DNA of 43,671 bases from IMG/VR virus record IMGVR_UViG_642791630_000021. One strand, given 5' to 3'. The stretch comes from a virus (lineage: Duplodnaviria; Heunggongvirae; Uroviricota; Caudoviricetes). Made by a program: the position numbers. Shown one piece after another: positions 15,001-18,000 of this stretch (within the stretch, counting starts at the first letter, position 1; each line of letters begins with the position of its first letter).

Positions 15001-18000
15001 GTTAAGACAGCGTTTTGCGTCAACTATAACGGAAATCGTTATGGTTGCTGAGGATGGGAAACAACGCAATATGGTGTCCATGCCACTTCGAAAACTTGCC
15101 GGCTGGCTACAAACCATTAATCCCAACAAAGTAAAACCCGAAATCCGCGATAAGGTCATCCGGTATCAGGAAGAGTGCGACGATGTTCTTTACGAGTACT
15201 GGACGAAGGGTTTTGTCGTTAATCCCCGTAAAATGAGCGTGATGGAAGAACTCAACCAGGCTTGTGCTGACATGAAACGGGATAAAAACATTGCCAGTGT
15301 GTTTGCTACCGGGCTGAATGAGTGGAAACAGGTTAAAGCCGCGCATGTATCAAAAATCCGTACGCTGGTAAATGAAGCGAATATGCTGATTGATTTTGTC
15401 CTGGCTGATACAGGCAAAGGGAAAATAACAAAGGCGGATTGATGGGGTGGCTAATGATATCAGATAAACTCATAACGCTGGTGAAGAGCCTCTGTGTACT
15501 TGTCGGCATTTCATTTTTAGTCATGCTGGTTGCCATTTTCTTTTCCACCGCCTGGCGAGTCCTGACGTTATCGGGACTGGTGGGGTGAAAGAGAGATGAA
15601 CCGTGTTCTGTGTGTGGTGATTATTGTCATGGCGGTTGGCTGTGGTGCGCTGTGGCTGGCAACAAACCATTACCGTGACAACGCGCTCACCTACAAAGCG
15701 CAGCGCGATAAAAAAGCCAGAGAGCTGGAACAGGCGAATGCCACCATTACTGACATGCAGGTGCGCCAGCGTGATGTTGCTGCGCTCGATGCAAAATACT
15801 CGAGGGAATTAGCCGATGCGAGAGCTGAAAATGAAACTCTGCGTGCTGATGTTGCCGCTGGTCGTAAGCGCCTGCGGATCAACGCCACCTGCCCCGGTAC
15901 CGTGCGTGAAGCCACCGGCACCTCCGGCGTGGGCAATGATGCCGCCGTCGAACTCTCTCCGGTTGCTGGACGAAACGTTCTCGGTATCAGAGACGGAATC
16001 ATCAGCGACCAGGCAGCATTGAGAATGCTTCAGGAATATATCCGCACTCAGTGTATTAACTAGTATTTTTGTTATTCGGAGAATGCATGAAGAAATTATT
16101 GGTAACCGTAAAGCCTTTTCAGGGAACAATTCCGTTCCGTATTTTGCAGCGTGGTCGTGTTCTTGTTGAAGGTTCGTTCAGTGGTAAATGTACGCAATTA
16201 CACTCCAGGACCTTTCAGGTGAATGCCACGAATGAAGAGCTAACCGTTGAGTGTACGATGAATGCCGCTAAATGCCGCATGGTATCCGCTGCATTACAGC
16301 CAGTGTGTTGAGCGACCTTATTATTCATGCGCGGTATTGTCGCCGTATTCCTGCATTAACAGAGACCGCAGCCCGACCGGGAGAATCCTCTGCGCGAGTG
16401 TGCGGGGATAATCAAAAACGATACACACCGGGGTTTACCGCGTTAACGGAGCGCGGCGTTGTCCCCTCATGGTCGCTGGTCCGGTGCGATGGTGGAAGAA
16501 GCCGGATGTTTATCACTATTAATTGATAACACAGAAATGGATTCATTGATTTTCAGCACGTTTTTGTATTCGTATTATTGAACATCTGTTTATTTTACTT
16601 TTAACATATTGATAATAAAAAGAGCTGTAAATCTTTAGATGAGTCGATTTTGTCCGGGGAAGTTCAAATGGATTTTATGCTGACGGTTTCTGGTGTGGTT
16701 ATCCTGTCCATTGCTTATACTGCAGATAAATATGGCTGCCATTTGTTATCACGTATTGGCGCTTATTGCTCGTTGATGCTGATTTTCTCGTCGCTTTTTT
16801 TTGAGTAAGTTATATTAATTATAACAAATAATTTTCTGTGTTTTTTCAGGCTATCCCGTCAGACGGGAAGCCTGTACTGCCGGGGGACGAATGGAAAACT
16901 GATGTGTCCGGTAACTGTGTGTTCTGTGAACACCATGTTACTTAATTATGTAATTCATACCCGAACGCTCTGTTGACAGCCTTCTTCTGCAGGCTTCAAT
17001 AACCCACGCTGAAAAGTTACCGGAACCTTTATGTTCAAGGGCGATATTGATCTGTTCAATCATGTGATTGGGGAAACGGATATTGCGGATTGTGGTTCTG
17101 CGGGGCCGGTTTTTCGATGACATTTTCTTTCCTCTGGTGACAAGCTATATGGCGAGGATTTTACATGGCTGTGCTTCGTACGTTACCGGGCAGAATCAAA
17201 ACTCTGAACACCCGGCGGATAAATGTCCTGAGGGGGGAACAGCGTCGTGTCAGTGGCAGTGCCCGGGTTTCCCTCAAACGTCGTATCTGGCGGAGGGATG
17301 CCGGACACTGTTGTCTCTGTAGACGCGTGGTTGACCTTTGTGACAGTGAACTCGATCACCGCATTGCACTTCAGTTCGGTGGTGGTAATGAGGAGACGAA
17401 CCTCTGGACCCTCTGTACTGAATGCCATCGCCAGAAGTCAGCGAGTGAAGCGGCGAGTGGTATGCCTGATCCGACGTTGCCTGAGCTTCCTGATGGCACG
17501 CTCAGGGCCGACGGAATCACTGGCCTGTGACCAGACCCGGGGGGGATCATCCGGCGAAAAAAAACGATCGCCCTGGACACCGCGCCCCCTCTCACGCAGA
17601 GAAAAAATTCCCGTTTCAGGGCAGTTAACATGTTAACTGGCTGCCCGGGCATTTTTGCGGTTTTTATCTTTATTATTCAGTTTGTTGTGCGGAAAAAATG
17701 TTAACAGGCTTTTTCAGCAAATGTTAACCAGGCAGCAGTTAACATTTGCGGCATGAGACGCCGGGAAAAATGGGCTGAACCATACCCGGCTGAGTGCGTT
17801 CTGGACCCGGGAGGAGGCTGTGCTGACAACGCAAAAACGAAAATTTGCGCTGGCGCTCATGTCCGGGAAAAACAAAACAGCGTCAGCCCTTGCCGCCGGT
17901 TATTCGGCGAAGACAGCCAGGGTTAAAGGCTCGCAGCTGGCAAAAGATCCGGAGGTGCTTGCGTTTATAGCCCGTAAACAGTGCGAGACGGTGGAGGTGG

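Follow-up and report, generated by a model that had tools for sequence, protein, structure and literature searches.

A GTTAAC repeat array beside the cohesive-end site of a Pankowvirus-type prophage as a probable cosB-like recognition site for the small terminase

Results

The packaging locus and its GTTAAC repeats

The DNA analysed here is a stretch of 43,671 nucleotides (IMG/VR virus record IMGVR_UViG_642791630_000021; Caudoviricetes), called the window throughout, which judged by its sequence is a Pankowvirus-type lambdoid prophage of E. coli. Its packaging region contains a non-coding gap at 17531-17819, running from an HNH endonuclease gene to terS, the gene of the small terminase TerS, and this gap holds five units built on GTTAAC next to a predicted cohesive-end (cos) cut site. 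We regard the five units as a probable cosB-like array recognised by TerS, on account of their position relative to the cut, their conservation as DNA and their association with one type of TerS. The gap is framed by the following genes.

17165-17530 (+): HNH endonuclease gene, the packaging accessory nuclease adjoining cos (Pfam PF01844, E=5e-6)
17820-18383 (+): small terminase TerS, with an N-terminal helix-turn-helix of the SF6/SPP1 G1P type (PF03592, residues 2-57, E=4.5e-8)
18380-20041 (+): large terminase TerL, the nuclease and motor of packaging, HK97 type (PF03354, PF20441; match to HK97 TerL 6z6d, E=3e-9)

A fused prohead protease-capsid gene lies downstream of TerL. The locus thus combines an HNH gene beside cos and an HK97-type TerL, as in HK97-like HNH-assisted cos systems, with a TerS whose N-terminal helix-turn-helix is the DNA-binding domain of the SF6/SPP1 G1P type.

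GTTAAC occurs 13 times in the whole 43.7-kb window, and five of these copies are found within 120 bp, at 17624, 17632, 17700, 17723 and 17738. At the rate observed outside the cluster, 0.022 copies would be expected per 120 bp, so that five or more in one such stretch has a Poisson P of ~4e-11, or ~2e-6 after multiplying by the window length. The extended units follow the consensus A[A/C]ATGTTAAC[T/A/C][G/A]G, three on the + strand (17628-17641, 17696-17709 and 17719-17733) and two on the − strand (17621-17633 and 17735-17749), and are arranged as follows.

17622-17639: site A, units U1 and U2, a perfect 18-bp palindrome CAGTTAACATGTTAACTG
17651-17695: AT-rich spacer of 45 bp that separates site A from the distal sites and contains two T5 tracts (17652, 17661)
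17696-17709 (+): unit U3, a single unit AAATGTTAACAGGC
17717-17749: units U4 and U5, a perfect inverted repeat of 12 bp whose arms are 9 nt apart, GCAAATGTTAAC-N9-GTTAACATTTGC

A sequence-only reading of this DNA had pointed to repeated GTTAAC-core motifs upstream of TerS, in four copies within ~120 bp, two of them direct and two palindromic. The repeats are real, and both their position between the HNH endonuclease and TerS and the ~120-bp span hold; the copy number does not, there being five cores rather than four, and what was described as two direct and two palindromic copies resolves into an 18-bp palindrome, a single unit and a 12-bp inverted repeat.

Predicted position of the cut site relative to the array

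To place the cut site we relied on Escherichia phage Lys8385Vzw, which was induced and sequenced and for which PhageTerm gave the type as cos, with 3′ cohesive ends CGCCCCCCCT at the genome end (PMC7946995). This phage is ~97% identical to the window element, all five GTTAAC cores included. Its record ends in ...GGACACCGCCCCCCCT and restarts with CTCACGCAGAGAAAAAATTCCCGTTTCAGGGCAGTTAACATGTTAAC, a junction collinear with window positions 17566-17637; taken over longer stretches, the end ...GATCGCTCCGGACACCGCCCCCCCT and the restart CTCACGCAGAGAAAAAATTCCCGTTTCAGGGCAGTTAACATGTTAACTGG... are collinear with 17566-17640. From this collinearity the overhang of the window is predicted to be CGCGCCCCCT at 17581-17590, with 17591 as the first base of the packaged left end. 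Burkholderia phage Bcep176 is distantly related but has the same module, and its record terminates at CGCACGTTCC|CTCACGCGCAG, which aligns with the first overhang base; the vB_E175 record terminates at the corresponding position of the alignment. Homology to Lys8385Vzw and Bcep176 therefore locates defined, single-stranded virion ends at this locus, and we consider it very likely that the cut site occupies 17581-17590. The features around it are listed below.

17539-17545: run of 7 G, ~40 nt upstream of the cut, kept across the whole TerL family
17566-17613: conserved cos core, GATCGCCCTGGACACC-[overhang]-CTCACGCAGAGAAAAAATTCCCG
17581-17590: cosN, predicted 10-nt 3′ cohesive end, by homology to the mapped end of Lys8385Vzw
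17602-17609: A6TT tract, +12 to +19 from the cut, in the conserved core; an A/T tract is kept in loci of both TerS types described below (H-type and G-type)

The cos core is kept in relatives from Enterobacter, Citrobacter, Morganella, Pseudomonas and Paraburkholderia regardless of their TerS type. Its order is constant: the G-run ~40 nt upstream of the overhang, then GGACACCGC or TAGACCGC, whose last bases enter the overhang, then the 10-nt overhang itself, followed by C(T/G)CACGC.CAGA, the A/T tract and CCCC. A G-run of at least 7, placed ~40-45 nt before the cohesive end, was seen in every relative of either TerS type, and in HK97 (L214, ~680-690) a G9 run lies about as far from the right end. 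The G-run at 17539-17545 may be a TerL/HNH, termination or cosQ-like element.

With +1 set at 17591, the GTTAAC cores lie at +34, +42, +110, +133 and +148. All are on the terS side of the cut, spanning +34 to +153 overall, and hence on the end that is packaged first; repeats located between the cut and terS on this end are what a cosB-like array would comprise. The sequence-only reading had placed cos in the HNH-TerS interval, and the Lys8385Vzw end and Bcep176 terminus bear this out by homology. Its suggestion that the GTTAAC units might themselves be the cut site was not borne out, as the units lie 34-153 bp to the terS side.

Conservation of the units in the E. coli lineage

Loci were fetched from IMG/VR by an exact cos-core pattern lying outside the repeats, which yielded 111 loci with 77 distinct sequences. 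Among these 77 variants, 47 of the 206 positions in 17614-17819 vary, and the variation avoids the repeats: the ATGTTAAC cores comprise 38 positions, of which only 1 is variable, versus 46 of 168 elsewhere in the segment (Fisher one-sided p=2.6e-4). Site A has one substitution only. The U3 core is invariant, with the next base, 17706, polymorphic for A/T, and the U4 and U5 cores are likewise invariant. Variable positions crowd the borders of the units (17621, 17644, 17688-17692, 17706 and 17718). In the window ~70 to 200 bp separate the units from the real terS start downstream of them, and they are still conserved, indicating that they are not mere translation-initiation sequence.

The cohesive end is polymorphic among the same variants, with G or C at 17584 in 56 and 20 of them and C or G at 17589 in 64 and 13, respectively. 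Co-resident prophages may therefore carry non-identical sticky ends.

A palindrome at the terS start of relatives and the origin of the array

A TerL-based scan of bacterial genomes, one per species, returned 80 loci with TerL 55-84% identical to that of the window; a TerS-based scan of the same set gave no matches, because each species is represented by one genome. Many of the 80 loci retain the HNH-TerS-TerL order, and in nearly all of them terS starts only ~45 nt after the cut. In these relatives, which come from many Proteobacteria, the terS start codon lies inside a TGTTAA..TTAACA palindrome (TGTTAACGTGTTAACA in enterics, TGTTAATGGCTTTAACA elsewhere), and family-wide the 80 bp surrounding the terS start hold GTTAA/TTAAC at 33x the density seen over the remainder of the loci. 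Codon usage points in the same direction. Among 39 loci of at least 57% GC, 32 encode the N-terminal Leu by TTA, a codon used for 12 of the 2047 Leu residues (0.6%) of the neighbouring TerL genes. In two loci whose proteins start with AFNS or ALNS (L035 and L070), TTAAC is retained in another reading frame. The low variation of the cores (1/38 versus 46/168), the preference for TTA (32/39 versus 0.6%) and the persistence of TTAAC across frames together indicate that the motifs are selected as DNA sequence. We also asked if a coding start lacking TTAAC is invariably accompanied by additional copies upstream; only about half of such loci have them, and the idea was not relied on.

Alignment identified site A (17622-17639) as the positional homologue of the start-codon palindrome of the relatives and the ATG at 17630 as the ancestral terS start, since it aligns with the terS starts of the relatives. 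The E. coli lineage carries ~190 extra bp from this ancestral ATG to the present terS start (GTGCTGACA...), and at the present start the motif has been removed by synonymous changes. The ancestral start has left a short open reading frame.

17630-17704 (+): leftover ancestral terS start, a 24-codon hydrophobic open reading frame MLTGCPGIFAVFIFIIQFVVRKKC, with its stop codon inside U3

In this frame the 77 variants have substitutions at 8 of 24 third positions versus 9 of 48 first and second positions by hand count, a difference that is not significant. The frame carries a nonsense change in one variant and a frameshift in another, and it is unannotated in RefSeq genomes.

Each direct unit reads ATG-TTA-AC., encoding the Met-Leu-Thr of the TerS N-terminus, and U4 (ATGTTAACCAGGCAGCAG) resembles the terS 5′ ends of relatives (GTGTTAACAGGACAGAAG). 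On these grounds the array probably arose by duplication of the ancestral palindrome that overlapped the terS start codon. The same likenesses, along with the absence of the ~190-bp segment from relatives, are what one would also expect if the repeats were neutral relics, that is, copies of the terS 5′ end made during the ~190-bp insertion and devoid of function. We consider this unlikely: the cores vary less than their surroundings, two of the units are inverted and form perfect palindromes, and the motif is under nucleotide-level selection in distant relatives, while an origin by duplication is itself compatible with function.

A second alternative would place the role of the repeats at the level of RNA or expression, either as hairpins of the late transcript acting on terS translation, transcript stability or termination, or as operators for a transcription factor. 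It takes its appeal from the terS start codon of relatives lying within the palindrome, from the 12-bp hairpin into which the U4/U5 repeat folds (z=-2.1) and from a weak promoter-like match on the minus strand that is made of the units. In the window, however, no unit overlaps the real terS start or the ribosome-binding site, site A folds no better than shuffled sequence (z=-1.0), and the AU-rich 6-bp stems are weak; a terminator scan of the region called none. The promoter-like match, the sole sigma-70-like one in the region (TTAACA-18-TAACAT, 9/12, 17727-17698 on the − strand), consists of U3 and U4 and is probably a by-product of the repeat sequence. The only candidate regulator encoded nearby is a ribbon-helix-helix-like DUF3950 protein, whose gene is absent from 80 of the 80 motif-carrying loci of relatives, and the protein was ruled out as the binder for that reason. 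Taken together, these points make an expression role of the repeats improbable.

The DUF3950 (YnfO/YlcI-like) gene encodes 61 aa and lies at 16938-17123 on the − strand, antisense and just upstream of the HNH gene; it is confined to the E. coli lineage.

The genus Detrevirus offers a case in which the packaging modules of two phages differ. Phage vB_PaS_IME307 (L211) has the window-type TerL/cos core and three GTTAAC around the terS start. Phage D3 (L210) was considered as a mapped relative and ruled out by its different TerS, cos and left end; only IME307 has the module.

Covariation of the motif with the TerS type

Beside homologous TerL, HNH and cos cores, the relatives carry TerS proteins of two N-terminal types. 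H-type proteins start with M(A)LTxKKRxF, and their profile matches the DNA-binding domain of SF6 TerS (4zc3, E=1.4e-5; 3zqp, 3.5e-5; 2cmp, 4.8e-5), the helix-turn-helix columns being the most conserved part of TerS. G-type proteins have a Gly/Arg-rich N-terminal arm, MAGVKGRSGGARPGAGRKPK, and no helix-turn-helix. Of the 47 H-type loci, 46 have GTTAA/TTAAC near the start (45 when only non-coding bases are counted), versus 0 of 15 G-type loci, and (G)AAATCA(A/G) repeats are present in 12 of 15 G-type loci versus 3 of 47 H-type loci. On the TerL tree H-type and G-type loci are intermingled, and parsimony requires at least 12 switches between them, so that the motif changes repeatedly together with the DNA-binding domain of TerS. 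The sequence common to both types, which includes the cos core as well as the HNH gene, stops just after the A/T tract and CCCC. As HNH and TerL do not switch with the motif, the motif belongs with TerS. The proposal of the sequence-only reading that TerS sites lie in the interval is thereby supported on three counts, namely purifying selection, conservation independent of reading frame and covariation with the TerS N-terminal type; from sequence we infer that the units are bound by TerS and how the complex is arranged.

In the 60 nt upstream of terS in G-type loci (L010, L016, L017, L020, L069 and others), (G)AAATCA(A/G)CAA repeats abut the start codon, as in aatcaaatcgaaatcaaatcag...ttaatcaaATG of L069. 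These AATCA repeats are a candidate recognition site for the class of TerS with the Gly/Arg arm.

Several points weigh against assigning the units to TerS. The main caveat is that the motif abuts terS, so that its covariation with the TerS type could come from linkage in one recombination cassette and not from function. The conserved A-tract at +12 to +19 could be the true TerS contact or an additional one; the TerS of HK97, which is the nearest system with biochemical work behind it, reads a single A-tract site at +15 to +29, with no repeats (PMC11331095). The core-to-core spacing of 8, 68, 23 and 15 bp is irregular. Diversity in the E. coli lineage is low (95-99% identity), and few substitutions stand behind the selection test.

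The second of these points can be extended into an explanation of its own, in which TerS reads only the A/T tract by the cut, in the manner of HK97, and the units are bound by a host nucleoid protein, HNH, TerL or nothing. The tract is indeed kept at +12 to +19 in every relative, and HK97 TerS does use such a site. It is, though, constant across TerS types, while the GTTAA and AATCA motifs switch with the type and HNH and TerL do not; moreover, the window TerS is unrelated in sequence to HK97 TerS and has an SF6-type helix-turn-helix. As for a nucleoid protein, a search of the region for the consensus of integration host factor (IHF) found only matches with 2 mismatches and thus no good site. 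We therefore rate this explanation as very unlikely, and continue to favour the five units as a cosB-like array for TerS.

Proposed arrangement and comparison with known systems

If the units are indeed read by TerS, the region could be viewed as a cos of two modules. In the first, the cos core at 17566-17613 would be cut by TerL with the help of HNH to leave the predicted 10-nt 3′ overhang. In the second, the five TGTTAAC half-sites from +34 to +153 would be bound by the N-terminal helix-turn-helix domains of an oligomeric TerS. Such binding would anchor the terminase on viral DNA and orient TerL over the cut site, and packaging would begin toward terS. A bend at the AT-rich spacer (17651-17695) is possible and, more speculatively, might let the proximal palindrome and the three distal sites contact one TerS ring.

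The overlap of the ancestral site with the terS start codon hints at autoregulation. A broader scenario, which we offer tentatively and regard as somewhat doubtful, is that specificity resides in a cassette of TerS plus its motif that can be swapped as one. Across Proteobacteria this cassette would have been replaced at least 12 times while TerL, HNH and the cut-site core stayed constant, and the exchange junction would lie directly behind the A/T tract. With the ancestral site over the terS start, TerS binding could shut off its own synthesis, and the E. coli lineage would have uncoupled the two functions by moving terS 190 bp and multiplying the site.

The closest functional parallel is cosB of phage lambda, in which the sites R3-I1-R2-R1 are bound by the winged helix-turn-helix of gpNu1. 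Like lambda cosB, the window array consists of several short repeats of mixed orientation, located on the first-packaged end between the cut and the gene of the small terminase; the proximal sites are set apart from the distal ones by AT-rich DNA that may be bent; and the proposed reader is the N-terminal helix-turn-helix of the small subunit. The window nevertheless does not have the attributes of lambda cosB proper, namely an IHF site, a Nu1-type TerS and a 5′ overhang. Lambda has 12-nt 5′ overhangs, versus the 10-nt 3′ overhang of the window; it uses the Nu1/A terminase without an HNH protein, whereas the window has an HK97-type TerL and an SF6-type TerS; and the repeat sequences are unrelated.

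In SPP1 and SF6, the small terminase G1P acts on the pacL and pacR boxes. The N-terminal helix-turn-helix domain is homologous to that of the window TerS (PF03592; 4zc3, 3zqp), and here too several repeated boxes lie near or inside the small-terminase gene. Unlike these Bacillus phages, which package by the headful (pac) mode, the window joins the same kind of reader to a cos-cutting TerL/HNH.

In HK97, it is established that TerL cuts cos with the help of the HNH protein gp74 (PMC11331095; Kala et al. 2014). The window shares with HK97 the order HNH-cos-TerS-TerL, a 10-nt 3′ overhang, a homologous TerL and, flanking the cut, a G-run ~45 nt ahead of it and an A/T tract immediately behind. It differs in that its TerS and HNH lack pairwise similarity to HK97 TerS and HNH gp74, and in having repeats where HK97 TerS reads one 15-bp A-tract site. 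The cos of Lys8385Vzw belongs to the same element as that of the window, and the paper on it gives only the 10-nt cohesive end (PMC7946995). In the literature on the cohesive ends of the Lys8385Vzw/Pankowvirus group and on GTTAAC in connection with the small terminase and cos, we found no account of the repeats; the cohesive end of this phage group was known already.

Distribution of the module and observations in flanking DNA

The 1.3 kb around the array is 95-99.9% identical to the Shiga toxin (Stx)-converting phages WGPS6, YYZ-2008, 2851, BP-4795 and 1717, all members of the genus Pankowvirus. Of 5426 complete E. coli genomes, 1277 contain the intergenic region, with as many as 7 copies in one genome, and the head and packaging module is carried by many Stx1a, Stx2a and Stx2c phages as well as other O157 prophages. 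Knowledge of the DNA that the terminase reads helps in understanding which defective prophages a neighbour's terminase is able to package, a form of cross-packaging that promotes the spread of toxin and effector genes. A case discussed in the literature is a terminase-defective Sakai prophage, whose packaging is probably due to a neighbour's terminase, the cos of the two being near-identical (PMC2669165). The family also constitutes a natural experiment in which TerS types and motif classes, two of each, are combined with a single cut-site core, and which could be used to study how small terminases set packaging specificity.

In ompW-integrated O157 prophages (L001, LC567822 PPompW_132418, 1546-3004), the IS110-family element ISEc20 ends inside the G-run, at window ~17544. 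The lysis genes, DUF3950 and HNH are gone from these PPompW prophages, and cos, the repeats and terS/terL are retained at 97.8% identity; they would need HNH in trans.

Two Rfam matches above the gathering score were found elsewhere in the window. The first is a sok antitoxin RNA of a hok/sok-type toxin-antitoxin system in the early region (9377-9551, +, 114 bits), and the second is a sar antisense RNA, as in the ant-type regulation of P22, in the tail region (32834-32900, −, 67 bits).

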